From: a virus
Taxonomy: Duplodnaviria; Heunggongvirae; Uroviricota; Caudoviricetes
DNA: 12,932 nucleotides
IMG/VR virus record: IMGVR_UViG_2529292920_000011
Span: 1-12,932 of that record
Strand: one strand, 5' to 3'
Position 1 is the first letter of the stretch; each line of letters opens with the position of its first letter. Positions 1 to 12,932 of this stretch are shown here, piece by piece. The translations under genes and the position numbers were made by a program. The notes below the pieces were generated by a model. It searched no databases. It was given only the letters and a program-made list of their open reading frames with translations, and had not been told where the DNA came from.

Positions 1-11
1 GTTTGGGGGAA
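1..11. other. Partial invertase crossover site 1 (right half only; centre dinucleotide lies 1-2 nt upstream of the window)
   Basis: Window opens with GTTTGGGGGAA, the reverse complement of the left half of site 3 (TTCCCCCAAACC) minus one base. It sits at the 5' boundary of cassette A, as sites 2-5 sit at the other cassette boundaries. Confidence 0.5.
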
Positions 12-536
12 GGCTCTGCACTGCCCGTTGGTGTACCTGTTCCGTGGCCCTCAGCCACTCCACCAACGGGCTGGCTGAAATGCAACGGCGCAGCATTTTC
101 TTCTGAAGATTACCCCAAATTGGCACAGGCTTACCCCGCGAACAAATTACCGGATCTACGGGGTGAATTTATCCGTGGCTGGGATGATGGACGTGGCTTG
201 GATGCTGGGCGTGCCTTGCTAAGTCTTCAGGATGACTCTTTTGAAGCGCACAGGCATGAGTCCTTTTTTTATGCGGGTATTTCACGTAATGAGACCCCAT
301 TAAAAAATCTTCCAAGTTCAGACGAGATGCTGACTTTAAGTTCCACAACTAATGCCTTGTCCCCGGACAGTATTGATGCCACCAACTCGTTAATTGGTAA
401 TGACGATTACAACTGTCTTATCGAAGGGAATAAAAATAACAAACGAACAGCGACAGGACTGAGTACCAGTATTGTCGGCACAGCAGAAACACGCCCCCGC
501 AACGTTGCATTCAATTACATCGTAAGAGCTGCATGA
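3..536 (+). CDS. Tail-fibre C-terminal receptor-binding cassette A (tail-collar type), 5'-partial; the constant N-terminal part of the fibre gene must lie upstream of the window
   Basis: Frame is open from the window edge, so the 'M' in the track is an internal TTG (Leu). Conserved N-terminal block GEGSALPVGVPVPWPSATPPTGWLKCNGAAFSSE..LPDLRGEFIRGWDDGRG, an HxH motif (HRHES) and the C-terminal ETRPRNVAFNYIVRAA are shared with the other cassettes. Motif pattern matches phage tail-collar / MdpB-like fibre tips. Confidence 0.8.
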   Translation: MGEGSALPVGVPVPWPSATPPTGWLKCNGAAFSSEDYPKLAQAYPANKLPDLRGEFIRGWDDGRGLDAGRALLSLQDDSFEAHRHESFFYAGISRNETPLKNLPSSDEMLTLSSTTNALSPDSIDATNSLIGNDDYNCLIEGNKNNKRTATGLSTSIVGTAETRPRNVAFNYIVRAA

Positions 537-555
537 AAACGTTGGTTTAGGGGAA
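530..555. other. Crossover site 2 (gix/hix-like, 12+2+12)
   Basis: TGCATGAAAACG-TT-GGTTTAGGGGAA. The AAAAC..GTTT core resembles Gin/Hin sites (AAACC-NN-GGTTT). Overlaps the TGA stop of cassette A and begins the conserved leader of cassette B. Site 4 is its exact reverse complement. Confidence 0.6.
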
Positions 556-576
556 GGCTCTGCACTGCCCGTTGGT

Positions 577-1023
577 GTGCCCGTTCCGTGGCCCTTAGCA
601 ACACCACCAACGGGCTGGCTGAAATGTAACGGTGCAGCATTTTCTTCTGAAATGTACCCCAATCTGGCAAAAGCCTACCCCACCAATAAATTACCGGATT
701 TACGGGGCGAATTTATTCGTGGCTGGGATGATGGGCGAGGAATTGATGCAGCACGCGCTTTATTGAGCATTCAAACCGGGATGTTGGAAAAACACCGCCA
801 TATTGTTGTAGCTAACGATGGATATGACACAAAGGATGAATGGGAGTTGGCCACGATTTTCAAAAAAACATATACACAAGGCAGGGGGCTTGATGCCACA
901 AATACAGGAGGGAGTTTGATTCCATCACCAACGCTTCATTCACGAGGAAGTATTGGTAACACAGGTGGTAGTGAAACCCGCCCCCGCAATATTGCATTTA
1001 ACTATATCGTGAGGGCGGCTTAG
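577..1023 (+). CDS. Tail-fibre C-terminal cassette B (silent alternative cassette; frame is open from 526, through site 2)
   Basis: Same conserved N-terminal block (PVPWPLATPPTGWLKCNGAAFSSEMYP...LRGEFIRGWDDGRG), HxH (HRH) and C-terminal ETRPRNIAFNYIVRAA, with a different middle segment. No promoter or constant region is attached, so it is expressed only after rearrangement. Confidence 0.7.
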   Translation: MPVPWPLATPPTGWLKCNGAAFSSEMYPNLAKAYPTNKLPDLRGEFIRGWDDGRGIDAARALLSIQTGMLEKHRHIVVANDGYDTKDEWELATIFKKTYTQGRGLDATNTGGSLIPSPTLHSRGSIGNTGGSETRPRNIAFNYIVRAA

Positions 1024-1209
1024 TTATATTCAACTGGCTGCTGCCAGTGGTATTTCCGGCAAGTTGATATCTGGTGCCATGTTTATATCCATTGCGTTCA
1101 GCGCGTCTATATAATCCAGCACGGCGTTAAGCCGGGTGGTTTCTGCCTGCGTCAACTTCCGCCGGCCTGCAACTTCAACTGAATCAGACTTATGGAAGCC
1201 ATTGCCGCA

Positions 1210-1641
1210 TCAGCCAGTGACTGGCGCTTGGTTTCTGCCCGCTTCTACTGCGGCACTATGTTGTGCCTCAGTATCTGTCACCCATTTTTCACCATCCCAT
1301 TTATCGTATGGCGTCGACGGGGAGATAGTGGTTGTATTTTTCGGGTAGTCACCTAGCGTCGTGATTTCTTCGGTGTTTCCCGTGTCAGTGTTATAGACGG
1401 TTTCACCACGATGATCTGGCGTATACTCCCATGAATTTAAATTCTCCGAACGGCGGATAGCATAGCCCGCTTTATGTGCGCCCGGGGCATCTAAACAGGA
1501 ATTTGCCGGAATACCGACACCCGCAGCAAGATATTCAGTTGATTCGGAAATATATTCCCGTGTCTCACCATCATAGTTATAAACGACGATGTTTCCTGCC
1601 TGTACGGCAATAAGGTCATCATTTAATATCGCGTTATTCAT
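1210..1641 (-). CDS. Tail-fibre assembly chaperone (Tfa, lambda Tfa / Mu U family), N-terminal 143 codons ending at an in-frame TGA; probable pseudogene whose remnant extends to about 1030
   Basis: Recalled lambda Tfa pattern is matched (VYN.., G.PANS, W...DHRGETVY, Y.KW.G..WV.DTEA). Start ATG overlaps the stop of cassette C (TAATG coupling). Beyond the TGA at 1210-1212 the same frame still encodes a Tfa-like C-terminus (KLTQAETTRLNAVLDYIDALNAMDINMAPDINLPEIP) down to a stop at 1030-1032. Confidence 0.6.
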   Translation of the reverse strand: MNNAILNDDLIAVQAGNIVVYNYDGETREYISESTEYLAAGVGIPANSCLDAPGAHKAGYAIRRSENLNSWEYTPDHRGETVYNTDTGNTEEITTLGDYPKNTTTISPSTPYDKWDGEKWVTDTEAQHSAAVEAGRNQAPVTG

Positions 1642-2099
1642 TATGCGGTTCTCACAATATAATTGAAGGCAATATTGCGTGGGCGGGTTTCATTCCCCTC
1701 TGAGGATTCCGTTCTGTATTGACTGGTAAATCTACCGTTAATTGCACCTTGCCGGACGGCGTTATCTGTCGACAACAGACTATCCCCGCCTTTGTCATTT
1801 GGCACCAGTACCGTGTTATCCCACGCATCCCATGACCGAATATTATGATAATGACTTCCTGTTAACCACCCCTGCATGCTTAAGATGACCCTTCCGGCAT
1901 CCACCCCGCGCCCATCATCCCAGCCACGGATAAATTCACCGCGTAAGTCTGGTAATTTATTGGTGGGGTAAGCCATTGCCAGTCTGGGATACATTTCAGA
2001 AGAAAATGCTGCGCCGTTACATTTCAGCCACCCCGTTGGCGGCGTGGCTGAGGGCCATGGAACAGGTACACCAACGGGCAGTGCAGAGCCTTCCCCCAA
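1641..2099 (-). CDS. Tail-fibre C-terminal cassette C (the only cassette followed by a tfa gene)
   Basis: Conserved leader GEGSALPVGVPVPWPSATPPTGWLKCNGAAFSSEMYP..LRGEFIRGWDDGRG, HxH (HYH), C-terminal ETRPRNIAFNYIVRTA. The 'M' is an internal TTG; the frame opens inside site 3. Confidence 0.75.
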   Translation of the reverse strand: MGEGSALPVGVPVPWPSATPPTGWLKCNGAAFSSEMYPRLAMAYPTNKLPDLRGEFIRGWDDGRGVDAGRVILSMQGWLTGSHYHNIRSWDAWDNTVLVPNDKGGDSLLSTDNAVRQGAINGRFTSQYRTESSEGNETRPRNIAFNYIVRTA

Positions 2100-2116
2100 A
2101 CCAACGTTTTCATGCG
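2091..2116. other. Crossover site 3 (inverted relative to sites 1 and 2)
   Basis: TTCCCCCAAACC-AA-CGTTTTCATGCG. Central AA on the plus strand, against TT in site 2. Lies at the D/C cassette junction and overlaps the stop of cassette D. Confidence 0.6.
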
Positions 2117-2583
2117 GCTCTTACGATGTAATTAAATGCAACGTTGCGAGGGCGAGTTTCTGTACCTACATTTCCACTAATTTCACCAAACCGTTTTACA
2201 TTACGAGAGCTAATGGCTCGTAGTGAGGAAGGCACATTTAAACCGGGTTCGTCTGTTTTAACTATTCCCCCGTCCCCGTATGTAGCCAGTATTCCAGGGT
2301 CTACTCCTTCCCGTGTACTTCCCGCGGCAAGTCCACCCCCGGTCCATAATTCCATATAGTGTGCATGATCCAAAATTGTGTGTGGCTGCCAATTAAGCAG
2401 AGCGCGGCCAGCATCCACCCCGCGCCCATCATCCCAGCCGCGAATAAATTCGCCCCGTAAATCCGGTAATTTATTGGCGGGGTAGGCCTTTGCCAGATTG
2501 GGGTACATTTCAGAAGAAAATGCTGCACCGTTACATTTCAGCCAGCCCGTTGGCGGCGTGGCTGAAGGCCATGGAACGGGCAC
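2110..2583 (-). CDS. Tail-fibre C-terminal cassette D
   Basis: Conserved leader, HxH (HAH), C-terminal ETRPRNVAFNYIVRAA. Its first 63 residues are near-identical to cassette B, matching the inverted-repeat geometry. Confidence 0.75.
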   Translation of the reverse strand: MPVPWPSATPPTGWLKCNGAAFSSEMYPNLAKAYPANKLPDLRGEFIRGWDDGRGVDAGRALLNWQPHTILDHAHYMELWTGGGLAAGSTREGVDPGILATYGDGGIVKTDEPGLNVPSSLRAISSRNVKRFGEISGNVGTETRPRNVAFNYIVRAA

Positions 2584-2604
2584 ACCAACGGGCAGCGCCG
2601 AGCC

Positions 2605-2630
2605 TTCCCCTAAACCAACGTTTTCATGCA
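2605..2630. other. Crossover site 4
   Basis: TTCCCCTAAACC-AA-CGTTTTCATGCA, the exact reverse complement of site 2. Lies at the E/D cassette junction and overlaps the stop of cassette E. Confidence 0.6.
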
Positions 2631-3214
2631 GCTCTTACGATGTAATTGAATGCAACGTTGCGGGGGCGTGTTTCTGCTGTGCCGACAATACTGGTACTCA
2701 GTCCTGTCGCTGTTCGTTTGTTATTTTTATTCCCTTCGATAAGACAGTTGTAATCGTCATTACCAATTAACGAGTTGGTGGCATCAATACTGTCCGGGGA
2801 CAAGGCATTAGTTGTGGAACTTAAAGTCAGCATCTCGTCTGAACTTGGAAGATTTTTTAATGGGGTCTCATTACGTGAAATACCCGCATAAAAAAAGGAC
2901 TCATGCCTGTGCGCTTCAAAAGAGTCATCCTGAAGACTTAGCAAGGCACGCCCAGCATCCAAGCCACGTCCATCATCCCAGCCACGGATAAATTCACCCC
3001 GTAGATCCGGTAATTTGTTCGCGGGGTAAGCCTGTGCCAATTTGGGGTAATCTTCAGAAGAAAATGCTGCGCCGTTGCATTTCAGCCAGCCCGTTGGTGG
3101 AGTGGCTGAGGGCCACGGAACAGGCACACCAACGGGCAGTGCAGAGCCTTCTCCTAAACCAACGTTTTCGTCTTTATCCCTACCTATACCAACTATGTAT
3201 TTTTCACGAAACAA
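2624..3214 (-). CDS. Tail-fibre C-terminal cassette E (inverted duplicate of cassette A; silent here)
   Basis: Residues 20-196 are identical to cassette A. The frame opens only at 3226, immediately after a stop, so no constant fibre N-terminus is attached in this orientation. Confidence 0.75.
   Translation of the reverse strand: MFREKYIVGIGRDKDENVGLGEGSALPVGVPVPWPSATPPTGWLKCNGAAFSSEDYPKLAQAYPANKLPDLRGEFIRGWDDGRGLDAGRALLSLQDDSFEAHRHESFFYAGISRNETPLKNLPSSDEMLTLSSTTNALSPDSIDATNSLIGNDDYNCLIEGNKNNKRTATGLSTSIVGTAETRPRNVAFNYIVRAA
3149..3174. other. Crossover site 5 (outermost site, adjacent to the invertase gene)
   Basis: TTCTCCTAAACC-AA-CGTTTTCGTCTT. The inner half is conserved with sites 3 and 4; the outer half diverges, as expected for a site bordering non-invertible DNA. 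It lies 55 bp upstream of the invertase ATG, as gixR/cixR lie next to gin/cin. Confidence 0.6.
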
Positions 3215-3228
3215 AGAGGATGTTTTTT

Positions 3229-3828
3229 ATGCAAATTGGCTATATTCGTGTGTCAACAAATGACCAGAACACGGATTTACAACGCAATGCACTGAACTGC
3301 GCAGGATGTGAACTGATTTTTGAAGATAAAATCAGCGGAACGAAATCAGCCAGACCGGGATTGAAAAAACTGCTCAGAACGCTATCAGAAGGAGATACGC
3401 TGGTTGTCTGGAAGCTGGACAGACTGGGCAGAAGTATGAAACACCTGATCACGCTTATTGAGGAATTGCGGAAAAAAGGTGTTAATTTCCGTAGTCTGAC
3501 GGACAGCATTGACACATCAACACCCATGGGGCGTTTCTTTTTTCACGTCATGGGGGCTTTAGCCGAAATGGAACGTGAATTAATTGTAGAGCGTACACTG
3601 GCCGGGCTGGCAGCAGCACGCGCACAAGGACGCATTGGCGGACGTCGCCCGAAGTTGACAAAAGAACAACACGAGCAAATAGCGAGGCTGATTAAATACG
3701 GTCATGACAGGAAACAACTGGCGATCATTTACGACATCGGCATATCGACGATTTATCGTTATCACCCTGTAGGCGATATACAGGCTGAAGAAACAACCAG
3801 GCAGACTCAGGAAAATGAAAACCGCTAA
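3229..3828 (+). CDS. Site-specific DNA invertase, serine recombinase of the Gin/Pin/Hin/Cin family
   Basis: N-terminus MQIGYIRVSTNDQNTDLQRNAL with the catalytic Ser in the YIRVSTNDQ motif; central VVWKLDRLGRSMKHLI and GRFFFHVMGALAEMERELI; C-terminal HTH (GISTIYRY). AGAGGA Shine-Dalgarno 8 nt upstream of the ATG at 3229. The track ORF 3034-3828 is an upstream in-frame extension running through site 5 and is unlikely to be real. Confidence 0.93.
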   Translation: MQIGYIRVSTNDQNTDLQRNALNCAGCELIFEDKISGTKSARPGLKKLLRTLSEGDTLVVWKLDRLGRSMKHLITLIEELRKKGVNFRSLTDSIDTSTPMGRFFFHVMGALAEMERELIVERTLAGLAAARAQGRIGGRRPKLTKEQHEQIARLIKYGHDRKQLAIIYDIGISTIYRYHPVGDIQAEETTRQTQENENR

Positions 3829-7743: not shown

Positions 7744-8256
7744 TCAGCCAAGCCCAAGCGCGGAACGGATACGGTCAGGCACAATGTCCTTGCCGTCCTT
7801 CCGGTAGATGTGGTTCAACAGGTCGATTTCCCACAGCGGGCGATCGTTAACGCTCAGCTTGTAGTAGGTGTTTTTGACAGCGTAAGTGTGTGATGTGGCT
7901 TCGCCCTGTTTGGCTTCCCCCATATCAATTTCCGTCACACGCCCGCGCATCTCGATTTCATACAGATCGCTTTCTGCATCGGTGTAGTATTCACCCGCAA
8001 AACGCAGCAGCGTGCCGTCAATCGTGCCGCCATATTTAAGGAACAGCGCACGAACAGCTCCCCCCATGACAAAACTCGCATCAAGCGCGGAGTCGTCCAG
8101 ACCGAGATCAATACTTACCGCCCCCATCATGCCACCCCCCCGGTAGCTGTCGGTTTTGCGCGTCAGTTTGGGCGGCGTGACGGATGTCACTTTACCCACT
8201 TCGTTTTCACCATCCACAAACAACGTAAAAAAGCGAAGATGTTTTGGTACAGCCAT
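7744..8256 (-). CDS. Tail tube protein (P2 FII-like)
   Basis: 170-aa ORF immediately downstream of the sheath gene, with a 1-nt stop/start overlap (TGATG). Size and position are typical of the FII tube family. Confidence 0.88.
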   Translation of the reverse strand: MAVPKHLRFFTLFVDGENEVGKVTSVTPPKLTRKTDSYRGGGMMGAVSIDLGLDDSALDASFVMGGAVRALFLKYGGTIDGTLLRFAGEYYTDAESDLYEIEMRGRVTEIDMGEAKQGEATSHTYAVKNTYYKLSVNDRPLWEIDLLNHIYRKDGKDIVPDRIRSALGLG

Positions 8257-9440
8257 CAGGCACCTCCCAGCACCGCAAATGCGGGACCAAAGAATTCATC
8301 AGTAAACGTCTGGTAAAGCTCCATGTCTTCCAGTGGCGGAACGGGCGTATATTTGTAGCGAATACGCACACGTCCCTGACGTAAATTCGTGGTGCCGTTA
8401 TCCACCACGTCATACCAGCACTCCGCGCCAATCAGTTTCCCGGCAGTAACCAGCGAATCCAGTTTTGCCCTGATGGCACTGATAACATCCTTCACGTTCG
8501 CAGGCGTCAGTGGACTGTCGATGGTTTCAAATTGCGCTTCCGCAATTGAATCAGCCAGCACCTGTGCGGCTCGGGTATACACCTCAAAGATGTAGGCGTT
8601 CGTTTCCGGTGTGCGGTTGCCCCAGAAGCGGAATCCGTTGCGACGAATAATGGTCGTGATTTCTTTGTTATTGAGGCTGTTGGCATCACTGTCTTCGGCC
8701 TGCAACGACCAGAACACATGCCTGGACATTCCCAGCACATTTTTAACCGGAACGTTGGACAGCGATTTGTGCCAGCCCTGCTCATGGTCAATGTACGCAC
8801 GAAGGCCGCACGCATAAGCAGGCGCGGGGAACGTTTCGTTTTTTCCACTTTTCGGGTTGTAGGCGATGAAGTCCGGCCATAAGAGCATCACCTCACGTTC
8901 GTTGAATTTCTGGCGGTAGGTAATCGCCTCAGCCATCGTGTTACAACCATGACATGTGGCATACACAAACGCGCGCAGTTTACCCGCAATCACGCACAGG
9001 GATTTCGTTACCGCCTCCGTGTCCAGCTCCGGCGCGGCCAGAATACGCGGACGGTATCCGATGCTTTCATCCTGCTCTGCAACAAGCAGCGCATACATCC
9101 CCGTATAGCTGCCGTCATCCTCAGAACCACCGATAACCAGTTGATCCTGCGTCTTACCGTCTTCTTCTTTGTGTTCAGCCACGCGAACGACGATCACCTT
9201 TGTGCTCACCTGGTCTGCGATGGCCTTAAGCGCACGATAAAGCGTCCCCGTTGTCCCGCATTTTCCCAGCACGTCATTGACGCGGGTCAGCAGTGTGGGC
9301 TTGTTCAGCGGGAACAGCTTCGCGTCCGCATCATCCGCCGTTGCCACGATACCGATAACGCTGGAATCAACATCGTTAATCGCTGTTACCAGGTCGGTAT
9401 TTTCCGTAACACGGGCACCATGAAAACGAGTTTCACTCAT
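8256..9440 (-). CDS. Contractile tail sheath protein (P2 FI-like)
   Basis: 394-aa ORF (MSETRFHGARVTENTDLVTAINDVDSSVIG...) of the size and position expected for a P2-type sheath, first gene of the sheath-tube-E-T-U block. Confidence 0.9.
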   Translation of the reverse strand: MSETRFHGARVTENTDLVTAINDVDSSVIGIVATADDADAKLFPLNKPTLLTRVNDVLGKCGTTGTLYRALKAIADQVSTKVIVVRVAEHKEEDGKTQDQLVIGGSEDDGSYTGMYALLVAEQDESIGYRPRILAAPELDTEAVTKSLCVIAGKLRAFVYATCHGCNTMAEAITYRQKFNEREVMLLWPDFIAYNPKSGKNETFPAPAYACGLRAYIDHEQGWHKSLSNVPVKNVLGMSRHVFWSLQAEDSDANSLNNKEITTIIRRNGFRFWGNRTPETNAYIFEVYTRAAQVLADSIAEAQFETIDSPLTPANVKDVISAIRAKLDSLVTAGKLIGAECWYDVVDNGTTNLRQGRVRIRYKYTPVPPLEDMELYQTFTDEFFGPAFAVLGGA

Positions 9441-9597
9441 AGCTTCAGCCCCTTGTATCCGTTAAATGATTCGGCAACAATCATCACCCACCACGCGCGT
9501 AATCTCACCCCTGCGCCGTTCTCCCGCCACGGCGACAACAAAAAGCAGTCCCCCCCTCCGCACGCACATGCGACCATGCCGCACAGGGAGGGAACAG

Positions 9598-10338
9598 ATG
9601 ACCGACACCACCATGCAATTGCTCAGTCAGGGCACAGACCCCGTAAAAATGCCGGATTTTGATATTCTCGCGGAGGGGAAAAGGCTGTCCGGCGTGGCAG
9701 AGCGCCTGATGAGTCTGTCACTGACCGACAACCGGGGATTTGAAGCAGACCAGCTCACCATCACGCTGGATGATGCGGATGGTCAGTTGCAGCTACCGCC
9801 ACGGGGCGCGCGTCTGACGGTTCTCATTGGCTGGAAAGGCGAACCGCTGACAGAAAAAGGTTCTTACATTGTTGATGAAATCGCACACGAAGGACCGCCG
9901 GACAGGCTGACGGTTTCAGCCAGAAGCGCAGATTTTCGGGATGAATTTAACGTTAAACGTGAGGTGTCCTGGCATGATGTGACCGTTGAGCGTGTGGTAT
10001 CCGCCATCGCTCATCGGTACGGCCTGAAACCGCAAATCAGCGAAATGCTGATGGATATCGAAATCGACCACGCCGACCAGACCGAAGAAAGCGACATGTC
10101 CTTCCTTACGCGCATGGCGGAAATGCTGGGCGCAATCACCACGGTAAAAAGCGGTAATCTGTTATTCATCATGCCAGGCGGTGGCGTGAACGCACAGGGC
10201 CAGCCGTTGCCATCGTTCGCCATCACACGCAGCAGCGGCGATCGCCATCAGTTCCGCATTGCTGACCGCGAGGCGTATACGGGGGTACGCGCCTACTGGC
10301 TTGATCTTAATTACGGGAAAAAGAAAAAGTCAGCGTGA
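9598..10338 (+). CDS. gpD-like tail protein (P2 late control gene D family), N-terminal 246 codons, ended prematurely by a frame change
   Basis: ATG at 9598 preceded by GGGAGGG (the track start 9466 is an upstream extension). Sequence ...LTVLIGWKGEPL...LTVSARSADFRDEF...SFLTRMAEMLGA...YTGVRAYWLDLNYGKKKKSA* stops inside an A-rich tract. Confidence 0.75.
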   Translation: MTDTTMQLLSQGTDPVKMPDFDILAEGKRLSGVAERLMSLSLTDNRGFEADQLTITLDDADGQLQLPPRGARLTVLIGWKGEPLTEKGSYIVDEIAHEGPPDRLTVSARSADFRDEFNVKREVSWHDVTVERVVSAIAHRYGLKPQISEMLMDIEIDHADQTEESDMSFLTRMAEMLGAITTVKSGNLLFIMPGGGVNAQGQPLPSFAITRSSGDRHQFRIADREAYTGVRAYWLDLNYGKKKKSA

Positions 10339-10706
10339 AACGCCGCAAACCGCCCAAGCTCAAAAAGGAGAAAAGCAGCAGCCGTGAAGGTGATTATATG
10401 GAAGGCGCGGAAGGCAATGTTTTTGTGTTACGCAAGACTTATCAGAACGAGCAGGCAGCAAGACGCGCAGCGGCGGCAAAGTGGCAGCAGCTACAACGCG
10501 GAGCCGCATCATTCTCCATCACGCTGGCGCGTGGACGTGCAGAACTCTACCCCGAAATGCATGGCACGGTAACAGGATTTAAAAGCGAGATTGATAATCA
10601 GGACTGGATTATTGCAAAAGCCGAGCACACCATTGATAACAGCGGCTTTACCACACAGCTTGAGCTTGAAGCAAAAATCCCGGAATGGATAGCAGAAACA
10701 GAATAA
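10335..10706 (+). CDS. gpD-like tail protein, C-terminal part in the -1 frame (frame open from 10311)
   Basis: ...AAAKWQQLQRGAASFSITLARGRAELYPEMHGTVTGFKSEID...GFTTQLELEAKIPEWIAETE is the continuation of a single gpD. Together the two parts give about 370 aa, the normal gpD size. Confidence 0.7.
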   Translation: MKRRKPPKLKKEKSSSREGDYMEGAEGNVFVLRKTYQNEQAARRAAAAKWQQLQRGAASFSITLARGRAELYPEMHGTVTGFKSEIDNQDWIIAKAEHTIDNSGFTTQLELEAKIPEWIAETE

Positions 10707-10834
10707 ATCTCTTAAAAATATTATTTTTGAGATGTGCTTCTACACTGACAGTAAGAACAAAAGATAATGTATCAGCCCACTAGATGTCAGAGGTTGGGGC
10801 ATCAACCAGATGCTAACAATAATACGGATGTTTT

Positions 10835-10864
10835 TCCCACATGACAGAGGAAGTCAAGTATAAT
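10835..10864 (+). promoter_or_regulatory. Candidate sigma70 promoter for the AT-rich island genes
   Basis: -35 ATGACA (10835-10840), 18-bp spacer, -10 TATAAT (10859-10864), about 90 bp upstream of the ATG at 10955. Found by eye only. Confidence 0.3.
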
Positions 10865-10954
10865 CTTCACAGTCCCTCCCGTCCAAGGGAATATGACTCA
10901 ATAGTAAAAGTTCCAGTTTAGTTAGTAGACCCACACTTTATAGAAGAGTAAATC

Positions 10955-11902
10955 ATGATTGGACAATTTTTAAGTGCAACAGAGATTTTAGCAAAGAACT
11001 ATGTTCGTAATAAAATGGTTAAAAATCCATTTTATTCGAATTTAAAATGGAATTTTGTTGAAAAAAACATCATAAGATTAACATCCTCACCGGTTAAATC
11101 AGTACTTTGCATATCAGCTTTTTCATTTGTACTACTTTATGTTGGATATTTAAACGAATTATTTATAAAAAAGAATCTTTTACATTATTTCCCGTTTAGG
11201 CATTCATTAACCGAATGGCAAACAACCATTTTAAGTGGCCAATTGACAATTATTGGTATTGTATACCCCCTTGTTATAGGTTTAGTAAGTGTCTTATTCC
11301 AAAAAAAAGCAGATAGAAAAATAGCCCAAACTGCTTATCAGCGTTACTCAGGATTCATGCTTGCTGGACTCAGCGGGCTTTTCTTATCAGGATTTATACT
11401 TCTCAGTGTACTAATTAAAACTGTCTTTGGAAGTTATCTTTATGGTATAGCCTGTCTAATCAGCATATTATGGCTTTTGATAAACATAGTTCTTTCTATT
11501 TGGTTCTTTATCGTGAGCCTTGAAATTCTTGATGATGTAAAACGGCAAATAATTATAAAGCGATACATTGCCTTCGAAATAGTAATGCCCCATATTTGTA
11601 ACAAAATCTCAGCCAATCTTAGGTTATACCCTATCTATCAAAAACATAACTATTCAAATTTAGAAATCAAGCAAGCCGATTACAAAGGAGAATACATATC
11701 TGTGGCTAGCAGTTATTCTAAGGAAGATGAGTTAAGTTTATATCACCGTCCTTTTCAACTTATTCTTAATCTTATTAATTACCAACTAAAAAAAAGAATC
11801 ATTTTGCGTCATTTGTCATTGGTGATAATCGTGCAAAAGAAACAGAATCCACGGGTAAGATACTTTTTAGCGTTAAAAATATCAAACCAGACAGCTTATT
11901 AA
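10955..11902 (+). CDS. Multi-pass membrane protein of unknown function (4-5 predicted TM helices), first part of a probable larger gene
   Basis: 315-codon open frame in about 30% GC DNA, where stops are frequent. Hydrophobic segments: VLCISAFSFVLLYVGYL, LTIIGIVYPLVIGLVSVLF, GFMLAGLSGLFLSGFILLSVLI, YLYGIACLISILWLLINIVLSIWFFIVSL. No family recognised. Confidence 0.65.
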   Translation: MIGQFLSATEILAKNYVRNKMVKNPFYSNLKWNFVEKNIIRLTSSPVKSVLCISAFSFVLLYVGYLNELFIKKNLLHYFPFRHSLTEWQTTILSGQLTIIGIVYPLVIGLVSVLFQKKADRKIAQTAYQRYSGFMLAGLSGLFLSGFILLSVLIKTVFGSYLYGIACLISILWLLINIVLSIWFFIVSLEILDDVKRQIIIKRYIAFEIVMPHICNKISANLRLYPIYQKHNYSNLEIKQADYKGEYISVASSYSKEDELSLYHRPFQLILNLINYQLKKRIILRHLSLVIIVQKKQNPRVRYFLALKISNQTAY

Positions 11903-12932
11903 TAAAAATACTTAAGCAATGTTTTTATAGGGCTCCGATTAAAGGAGGAGATTTTTCCGTAAGTCTTACAATGCAGGCTATAACAGCAGATACGTATATG
12001 TATCTGCGGGATTCTGATCTCTTTAGTTTTGACGATGCTATCTCTGCATTAATTAATAACTTTAATAATCTCTGCGATTTGTATTTTTTTCAAGATGACA
12101 ATACCAACAATAATTTCTTACTGATCACTACAGAATTATTTGAACGGAGTTTTCAATATGAGTTTTCAGATGAAGTTTATAAAATATCAAATAATTCCAT
12201 GGATAAAATTAATCTTTCTGAAAGATTTTTTGAATTATGTCTTTGGAGCGGAGTGCGTATTCTTAATAATAGAAAACATCTTATCAGCAATGAACTTTGT
12301 ATCTATATGGGAATTACTCGTTCACAATGGTCAATATTAACAGAATGGTTCCGAAACAACCAATCACTCTTAAATGCCTCGCTTCGTTCACGTTATAATC
12401 GTATATTAAGAACCTATGCCACTGTTTGGGAGCAATATCAAGAAAGCATCAACTTTCGTTTCTGCAATACAGAGAATTCAGATTTATTTGAATTATTTTG
12501 CAAAACGCAACTACAAGAACTTCCATCGATCATTATTGATGCAACACAGACTCGCGATCCTTCTACTATTGATACAGCCGTCGATCTTATTAACCGATGG
12601 CAGCACTCAATGAATATTGACAGCCATTCGGTAGAAAAATACAGTTACCAAGGCCAGCTTTTTAACCCGGGTTTTTTCATCTCCAAAAAACTAAACTTCA
12701 ATTCAGACAGAGAGTGGTTCAATATTGCCATCATAAATGCGTTGACTGACATGCGTATATGCACATGTCTTTATCTGACATCAAGAATCAATACTTCTGA
12801 CAAACTAATGACACATTACATTAAACTTATTTTAGAGGGTAAACTTATTGACCAAACCGGTGGATATGAAACTCCCACTGAAGAAATTGATAATGCAAGC
12901 CAACTAATCAAGATATTAGTTAGAATCTGCCT
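11779..12932 (+). CDS. Long ORF of unknown function, 3'-partial (runs off the window); probable continuation of the membrane-protein gene in the -1 frame
   Basis: I translated this frame by hand; it has no stop from 11779 to the window end (about 384 codons) in AT-rich DNA. First ATG is at 11971; AGGAGG at 11944-11949 is too far from it to be a convincing RBS. It is not in the ORF track, presumably because it has no stop in the window. Confidence 0.6.

Follow-up and report, generated by a model that had tools for sequence, protein, structure and literature searches.

What does a P2-type prophage carry where its base composition changes abruptly, directly behind the last of its conserved tail genes? 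The question is raised by a stretch of 12,932 nt (the window), IMG/VR virus record IMGVR_UViG_2529292920_000011, which is Escherichia coli contig AIEZ01000017.1 (assembly GCA_000249135.2) and carries a P88-like prophage (genus Xuanwuvirus, P2-type). Immediately downstream of gpD an AT-rich island starts, which a preliminary description, made from the sequence of the window alone, had taken for accessory cargo and for a likely place of an undescribed system. The analysis reported here supports the view that this is horizontally acquired accessory cargo that had not been described. The island holds a single gene encoding a protein of 1039 aa with four predicted transmembrane (TM) helices and a C-terminal domain predicted to adopt the HK97 capsid fold, and we consider it on balance probable that this product is a one-protein, membrane-anchored anti-phage system expressed from the lysogen.

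The left limit of the island was seen in the base composition and in the comparison with related phages. In 300-nt windows the GC content was 0.52–0.59 over the tail genes (positions 8000–10699) and 0.27–0.39 from 10700 to the end of the window, with the switch coinciding with the gpD stop codon (TAA, 10704–10706). DNA similarity to P88-like phages (96–98% identity) stops at position 10702, and in the alignment with reference phage P88_4B11 the likeness ends 1–4 nt before the gpD stop. Since the composition break, the stop codon and the end of phage similarity coincide, the boundary is real and sharp, which bears out the abrupt drop in GC content reported in the preliminary description. The suspicion that the window cuts the island off was also correct: the complete island is a 3466-bp insertion (L001:13997–17462) replacing a few bases of the empty site of P88_4B11, where ogr follows 42 nt after gpD, and the left 2230 bp of it make up positions 10703–12932 (plus strand) of the window. 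It runs from the gpD stop to the ribosome-binding region of ogr, as delimited by composition, the empty-site comparison and a viral contig (L019) with the same cassette, and has a GC content of approximately 0.33, against 0.54. Its content is one 3120-bp gene (L001:14249–17368, the intact open reading frame (ORF) that we used as reference for comparison), of which the window reaches residues 1–659 of 1039, followed by a strong intrinsic terminator at the 3′ side (L001:17376–17399, free energy (dG) −16.4, z −5.2).

Complete genomes place the island within the prophage. A search of 5426 complete E. coli genomes recovered it from 5, chromosomal every time, in the order tail sheath, tube, E, T and U genes (minus strand), gpD (plus strand), the 3120-bp ORF (annotated as 'hypothetical protein' or 'MFS transporter'), ogr, hok and the host genes ihfA-pheT-pheS. 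Because the phage genes ogr and hok lie between the island and host ihfA, the island is neither the prophage edge nor core genome, and the proposal of accessory cargo in a P2-type prophage is upheld by this gene order, by its rarity and by the variability of the gpD-ogr junction. The alternative that this is ordinary AT-rich core-genome DNA flanking the prophage, conserved in prophage-free relatives, can practically be dismissed on the same grounds, as the sequence was also absent from the gpD-ogr site in 73 of 74 viral contigs. A tRNA search around the island gave none, and the att repeats or tRNA that might have been expected downstream do not form part of the island, which has neither a tRNA nor an att signature of its own. 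The hok/gef-family toxin gene (L001:17955–18095), situated between ogr and the prophage end beside ihfA, is conserved in P88-like phages.

The variability of the junction was assessed using 80 viral contigs with a gpD at least 98% identical, 74 of which also contain ogr. The gpD-ogr spacing is 44–46 nt in 42 of these 74 contigs and 1.0–4.0 kb in the other 32, with at least 19 unrelated types of insert, all AT-rich (GC 0.32–0.43) and containing 1–3 ORFs each; the gene studied here was found at this site in one contig (L019) alone. The island is hence flanked by core genes, and close relatives have either nothing or some other insert in its place. Matching of the cassette proteins against PADLOC profiles identified SIR2 (E 3e-155) and HerA (E 8e-253) in L067, a PifA-like KAP nucleoside triphosphatase (NTPase) in L037 (E 1e-64), PDC-S06 in L098 (E 2e-277), PDC-S31 in L095 (E 4e-27), and two radical-SAM proteins with weak similarity to viperin in L084 (E 3e-07). 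With SIR2-HerA, the PifA-like protein, PDC-S06 and PDC-S31 representing four recognised defence systems in sister cassettes, the gpD-ogr site is a defence hotspot. At least 12 other cassettes (L022–L098) gave no PADLOC match, with ORFs of for instance 932, 527, 500, 495, 478, 389, 379, 356 and 340 aa, and are candidates for further defence systems; several cassettes are without defence annotation, such as one with an alpha/beta-hydrolase-like ORF.

The cargo had been assigned to a known position for such genes, which is right in that the gpD-ogr site harbours recognised defence systems in other phages, but the site is not one of the two P2 hotspots described in PMC9122126 and PMC9519451, gpA-gpQ (tin/old) and the fun locus. 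A 2026 preprint mentions minor hotspots 'within the late genes' (10.64898/2026.02.27.708500), and the gpD-ogr junction is not named as a hotspot in any of these three sources. The cassettes of the P2 hotspots, many of unknown function and some of them validated defences, are likewise AT-rich, rapidly swapped units of 1–3 genes between core genes (PMC9122126, PMC9519451), whereas the present cassette differs in its position, gpD-ogr in P88-like Xuanwuvirus phages, and encodes a protein unrelated to Tin, Old and Fun(Z).

All gpD-ogr cassettes have common semi-conserved flanks (left GCAACTTAGATGTATTAGCTCAGAC..., right ...GTCAGTTGGAATCTGAGC.AGTACAACTTAGAATAGC...), with elements in them that are in part inverted repeats. 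In the window, positions 10707–10796 (plus strand) hold a diverged left-flank copy, as seen in the left-flank alignment of 19 cassette types, and the right flank of the studied cassette is at L001:17400–17462. Furthermore, a short direct repeat, CAACTTAGA, is found in two copies bracketing filled sites and in one copy in empty sites, and at the level of sequence the shared flanks and this repeat suggest a defined mechanism for swapping or deletion of the cassettes. Within the left flank lies the hairpin previously noted at the boundary (10707–10733), which does exist as a 10-bp A/T stem (10710–10732; dG −5.9 kcal/mol) but is not significant, with z = −1.67 and 11 of 200 shuffled sequences folding equally well. 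The promoter ascribed to the island at 10835–10864 lacks convincing support: there is a perfect TATAAT hexamer (10859–10864, plus strand), a candidate −10 element read from the sequence 91 nt upstream of the start codon, but its best −35 element (TTCCCA) is 19 nt away, an acceptable −35 at 16–18 nt was not found, and the site was not reported in a consensus promoter scan. The cassette has a deviant composition and a strong 3′ terminator, but a convincing promoter was not found, and Rfam gave zero families in the window.

The cargo gene is split in the window. Its first piece (10955–11902, plus strand, 315 codons) matches the intact protein over residues 1–277 and then continues as a frameshifted tail ending in TAA-TAA; the second piece (11779–12932, plus strand, first ATG at 11971) is in another frame, is open to the window end and covers approximately residues 276–659, which comprise the small alpha/beta domain and the beginning of the helical solenoid, with limits taken from the structural model discussed below. 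The long coding frames noticed earlier are present, but as two pieces of one frameshifted gene and not as separate frames. The frameshift is located in an A8 homopolymer (11788–11795, plus strand), where intact alleles have A9 (CTA AAA AAA AAG; for example in E. coli RIVM_C040348, NZ_CP134716, 2410654–2413773) or, in a third allele (L002), an A run broken by a synonymous change (AAAAAAGAAG); outside this run, the window gene differs from the intact alleles by one substitution. Compared with L001, the window is one A short in each of two poly-A runs, the other being in gpD (late control D/tail protein; 9598–10706, plus strand), which is the last conserved phage gene before the island, assigned by 97–98% DNA identity to P88-like phages and intact in L001 as a RefSeq gene of 369 aa. 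The 1-nt deletion near position 10324 (A6 to A5) splits gpD into ORFs 9466–10338 and 10335–10706, and as it occurs only in the window's assembly, a 2012-era draft, either a sequencing error in the homopolymer or decay of the prophage may account for it.

Sequencing error as the sole cause of the cargo-gene frameshift was rejected. The A8 allele is also present in the Logan assemblies SRR25118670 and SRR22078033 and in GCA_048001485.1, with gpD intact there, and the A8-bearing prophages L015 and L016 carry a different tail-fibre module; its recurrence in three other datasets, on prophages with a different tail-fibre module, indicates that A8 is a real polymorphism. It gives gene calls of 315 aa and 691–700 aa in four datasets, and the alleles are intact in all five complete genomes. 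There is a substantial possibility, if one falling a little short of probable, that the gene is a dead remnant in the window's strain, with A8 truncating the protein after its membrane module in a decaying prophage, and with the family as such perhaps still functional. The 1-nt deletions in A runs of both gpD and the cargo gene, the split gene calls and the intact copies in the complete genomes agree with such a remnant, whereas the presence of only one other substitution indicates that the lesion is recent or reversible, and the gpD lesion, unique to the draft assembly, may be erroneous. In addition, a −1 slip at the A8 site (C UAA AAA AAA G) would restore exactly the intact sequence ...QLKKKNHF..., and slippage on A runs is familiar from dnaX frameshifting and from transcriptional slippage. 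Full-length protein could be made from the A8 allele only via such −1 ribosomal or transcriptional slippage; given the intact alleles with A9 or an interrupted run, it is simpler to assume that a run prone to slippage has recently acquired an inactivating mutation. The A run of the E. coli/Shigella allele could additionally serve as an on/off switch of a costly gene.

The intact product (WP_049143931.1) showed no match to any family in Pfam, NCBIfam and PADLOC at E ≤1, using PADLOC-DB v2.0.0, a library from 2023 that leaves newer systems uncovered. A PHROGs search gave one chance-level match (E 0.014) and no capsid family, Pfam searches with eight distant relatives gave sub-threshold noise only, the family profile had no match to PDB sequences at E ≤10, and no mention of the RefSeq accessions of the protein was found in the literature searched, so that the content is as undescribed as had been supposed. 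Clustering at 90% gave 186 homologues, all approximately 1030–1069 aa and without Pfam domains, which fall into three tiers: at 98% identity a cluster of 692 sequences, mostly from Shigella and E. coli; at 51–71% identity sequences from Erwinia, Pantoea and metagenomes; and at 26–29% identity a large clade of 1069-aa proteins, one sequence of which is on 462 contigs. This last clade is indexed in 996 blocks of the collection. An exhaustive profile search extended the family, whose architecture is uniform, to 501 representatives (50% clustering), with E ≤1e-30 for 150 of these. The 501 include Shewanella and Psychrobacter, and nearly all have a length of 1030–1150 aa and align over their whole extent. 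Purifying selection acts on each domain of the gene, as the ratio of non-synonymous to synonymous substitution rates against a 71%-identical homologue is 0.20 overall, with 0.17 for the TM region, 0.13 for the alpha/beta domain, 0.18 for the helical region and 0.30 for the C-terminal domain.

A full-length AlphaFold2 model based on 29 family members (mean predicted local distance difference test score (pLDDT) 77, predicted template modelling score (pTM) 0.63) consists of an all-helical N-terminal region (residues 1–224), a small alpha/beta domain (residues 236–330), a long helical region forming a solenoid of approximately 480 residues (residues 336–820) and an alpha/beta C-terminal domain (residues 830–1035). 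Hydropathy, charge and the AlphaFold helices predict four TM helices at residues ~46–66, 90–114, 133–155 and 160–190 (11090–11524 of the window, plus strand), and all four hydrophobic segments of the protein lie within residues 46–190. Lys/Arg-rich stretches are found before TM1, between TM2 and TM3 and after TM4, and these positions predict an N-in/C-in topology with the remaining ~850 residues in the cytoplasm. This does not resemble an MFS transporter, as WP_264716223.1 is labelled in RefSeq: we rejected that name because neither Pfam nor NCBIfam gave an MFS profile at E ≤1, and four helices are predicted instead of twelve in two six-helix bundles. Like MFS transporters the product is an integral membrane protein, but it has an 850-residue cytoplasmic extension, and the label, which is spreading in RefSeq, needs correction.

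Conservation within the protein is highest in the membrane module. Mean column conservation is 0.74–0.88 in TM2–TM4 versus 0.44–0.55 elsewhere (0.44 in the HK97 domain), and the sequence QLTIIGIVYPLVxGLxSxxFQxK...YSGFMxAGLSGL is near-invariant between members that are only 25% identical overall. Invariant residues of the membrane module are Q96, Y104, P105, S132 and G133. A simple anchor would not require such conservation, and to judge from the alignments the membrane module is probably the active part. We also considered whether the family has a modular N-terminus, which was rejected as the candidates P0225, P0194, P0215, P0224 and P0145 all retain the same membrane module, with P0254 looking truncated. 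A second invariant element is an SGR-Y motif (residues 691–694), located in a loop at residues 685–700 (L001:16301–16348, beyond the window). The model has no other long loop of such low confidence (pLDDT below 50); this one lies between helical subdomains, and the motif might be a binding or cleavage site. In fold searches with the full-length model, the central region gave generic alpha-solenoid matches only, with no functional clue.

When the last 244 residues were modelled alone from a 19-sequence alignment, confidence was higher (pLDDT 88.6, pTM 0.85), and the model was similar in three dimensions across the HK97 core to a range of shell proteins, with scores of 10.9 for the Pyrococcus furiosus encapsulin, 10.8 for a Family 2B encapsulin, 10.5 for the YSD1 major capsid protein, 10.4 for both lambda gpE and T4 gp24, and 10.0 for both HK97 gp5 and SaPIbov5 Ccm. 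These comparisons align 151–214 of the 244 residues at 5–12% identity. The prediction of an HK97 fold for the C-terminal domain is thus of good confidence. By sequence, the domain matched no Pfam family (Phage_capsid, Linocin_M18), no PHROGs capsid family and no PDB entry, and the earlier statement that the island shows no likeness to phage structural proteins is accurate at that level, but not for the predicted structure of the part beyond the window. Encapsulins are soluble HK97-fold shell proteins of bacteria and archaea and have cargo-loading partners, whereas here the fold forms the last fifth of a membrane protein, without a Linocin_M18 or Phage_capsid match and without a cargo gene present. 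No description of a membrane-anchored HK97-fold protein in a defence context was found in the literature searched.

An alternative function is that of an entry blocker, in which a homo-oligomeric inner-membrane complex plugs the DNA injection route with its helices, so that invading genomes are kept out and the cell survives, with the HK97-fold domain providing pentamer- or hexamer-type self-assembly only. Such superinfection exclusion would fit the carriers, a prophage and probable plasmids, which are typical for exclusion genes, as well as the conservation of the membrane module, the natural tendency of HK97-fold proteins (encapsulins, capsids) to oligomerise, and the lack of an enzymatic domain in Pfam, NCBIfam and PADLOC searches. 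However, known exclusion proteins are small, and here selection acts on ~850 cytoplasmic residues; most of the protein is on the cytoplasmic side and not in the periplasm, where injection is met, and the cytoplasmic domains vary in the manner expected for target recognition. We regard exclusion as improbable.

The genes found next to family members bear on whether the function is defence at all. Among the contexts examined no partner gene is conserved throughout, and the protein therefore appears to act alone, but the neighbours are repeatedly of defence or mobile-element type. They include a CAP12-PCTIR TIR protein with an Rpn recombinase; a KAP NTPase with an integrase fragment and SIR2_2; SymE, CbtA/CbeA and RadC; an element with a P4-type primase that carries HNH, FRG and DUF3800 genes; a Serratia chromosomal islet with DUF3800, HNH_2 and TIR_2; and an AAA_15/AAA_21 ATPase with a RES toxin on contigs of 120–157 kb (L003–L007), probably plasmids, that have colicin M and its immunity gene. 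On these contigs the 1069-aa paralogue clade sits in a fixed block with the AAA_15/AAA_21 ATPase, the RES-domain toxin, an integrase, and colicin M with its immunity gene.

An accessory function outside defence, be it as a transporter, a membrane stress or envelope factor, an anti-plasmid or plasmid-competition factor, or in lysogenic conversion or fitness, would be in keeping with the RefSeq name of some copies, with the location of the largest clade on probable plasmids, and with those cassettes in the same hotspot that are without defence annotation. We think this unlikely, given the absence of MFS and any other Pfam or NCBIfam match, the four helices, the repeated defence-type neighbours and a hotspot with four recognised defence systems.

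We propose that the anti-phage system would work as follows. The intact product would be an inner-membrane protein composed of the four-helix module, the alpha/beta domain, the helical solenoid and the C-terminal HK97-fold domain. Its variable cytoplasmic part, above all the capsid-fold domain, would engage the head-assembly machinery of an invading phage (major capsid protein, scaffold, protease or portal), after which the invariant membrane module would act as effector through ion leakage or membrane disruption, so that infection is aborted or assembling heads are trapped at the membrane. We propose this division into effector and sensor since the membrane part is conserved and the cytoplasmic domains vary, and the capsid-fold domain suggests head assembly as the signal, via co-assembly with or mimicry of the capsid protein of the invader. 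That the protein senses or mimics capsids is the more doubtful part of the proposal, and depends on the predicted structure.

Two known systems provide the analogy by which activation may compromise the membrane. Lambda RexAB is a prophage abortive-infection pair in which RexB is a four-helix membrane channel and RexA the cytoplasmic sensor. The cargo protein is likewise prophage-borne and, in our working model, with which its architecture is compatible, combines a four-helix inner-membrane module with a cytoplasmic sensing part; unlike RexAB, it is a single chain of 1039 aa and not a pair of small proteins, has no detected sequence relation to them, and has an HK97-fold domain without a Rex counterpart. 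F-plasmid PifA is a membrane-associated KAP-type NTPase that is triggered by the T7 capsid protein gp10 and by gp1.2. It shares with the cargo product the property of being a single large protein of a mobile element, and would also share membrane-linked abortive infection and a capsid-protein trigger, the latter two being proposed here; a PifA-like gene fills the same gpD-ogr slot in the sister phage L037. In contrast to PifA, the cargo protein has no P-loop or KAP domain, has an integral four-helix anchor, and includes a predicted capsid-like fold of its own instead of just binding a capsid protein.

A precedent for the use of the fold is SaPIbov5 Ccm (PDB 7rwz), an HK97-fold homologue of capsid proteins used by a satellite against head assembly of its helper phage, showing that an HK97-fold homologue can be turned against a phage capsid. 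Ccm co-assembles into small capsids. It is soluble, with a PDB chain of 260 residues, whereas the cargo protein is membrane-anchored, four times larger and without detectable sequence likeness to capsid proteins. The family may represent a formerly unrecognised kind of immune protein, a membrane-tethered capsid mimic, an idea that we put forward tentatively. Its HK97-fold domain would join the invader's major capsid protein in assembly, or undergo the same processing, and so serve as a decoy in the formation of capsomers, in the binding of scaffold or towards the prohead protease, and this event would open the four-helix module or hold nascent heads at the membrane.

Several observations weigh against a role in defence and capsid sensing. 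With no PADLOC match, the intact protein is without a homologue among validated defence proteins, and neither a catalytic motif nor one for nucleotide binding was found in it. The association with defence-type neighbours is judged from seven contexts, and the consensus scan provides weak evidence for a promoter of the cargo gene. The capsid fold is a prediction, at 5–12% sequence identity to capsids, and could serve self-assembly alone. Finally, the copy in the window is frameshifted, as is gpD, and the prophage may be decaying and the gene inactive here.

The tail-fibre region at the other end of the window (1–3828) is a multi-cassette invertible region. It has five C-terminal fibre cassettes with a Collar domain in both orientations (3–536 and 577–1023 on the plus strand; 1641–2099, 2110–2583 and 2624–3214 on the minus strand), a tail-fibre assembly chaperone (1210–1641, minus strand) and a serine invertase (3229–3828, plus strand; Resolvase, E 7e-52). 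A 759-nt inverted repeat with 97% identity (1–759/2401–3159) and further repeats of 230–290 nt are present, and in sister prophages that share the cargo gene one fibre of 911 aa takes the place of this region.

The gpD-ogr junction of P88-like phages emerges as an additional defence hotspot with many unannotated cassettes, and the finding on its cargo gene sits between one more hotspot gene of unknown role and a novel class of immune protein. Should the gene act in defence, it would represent a widespread single-gene system missed by current catalogues, with 501 clusters (at 50%) in Enterobacterales, Shewanella, Psychrobacter and metagenomes, including hundreds of E. coli and Shigella copies and the clade on large colicin-M contigs that are probably plasmids. 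The fusion of a capsid fold to a membrane module is unusual and suggests immunity by mimicry of a viral structural protein; if true, defence would here consist in detecting virion assembly through imitation of the protein fold that is best conserved among tailed phages.

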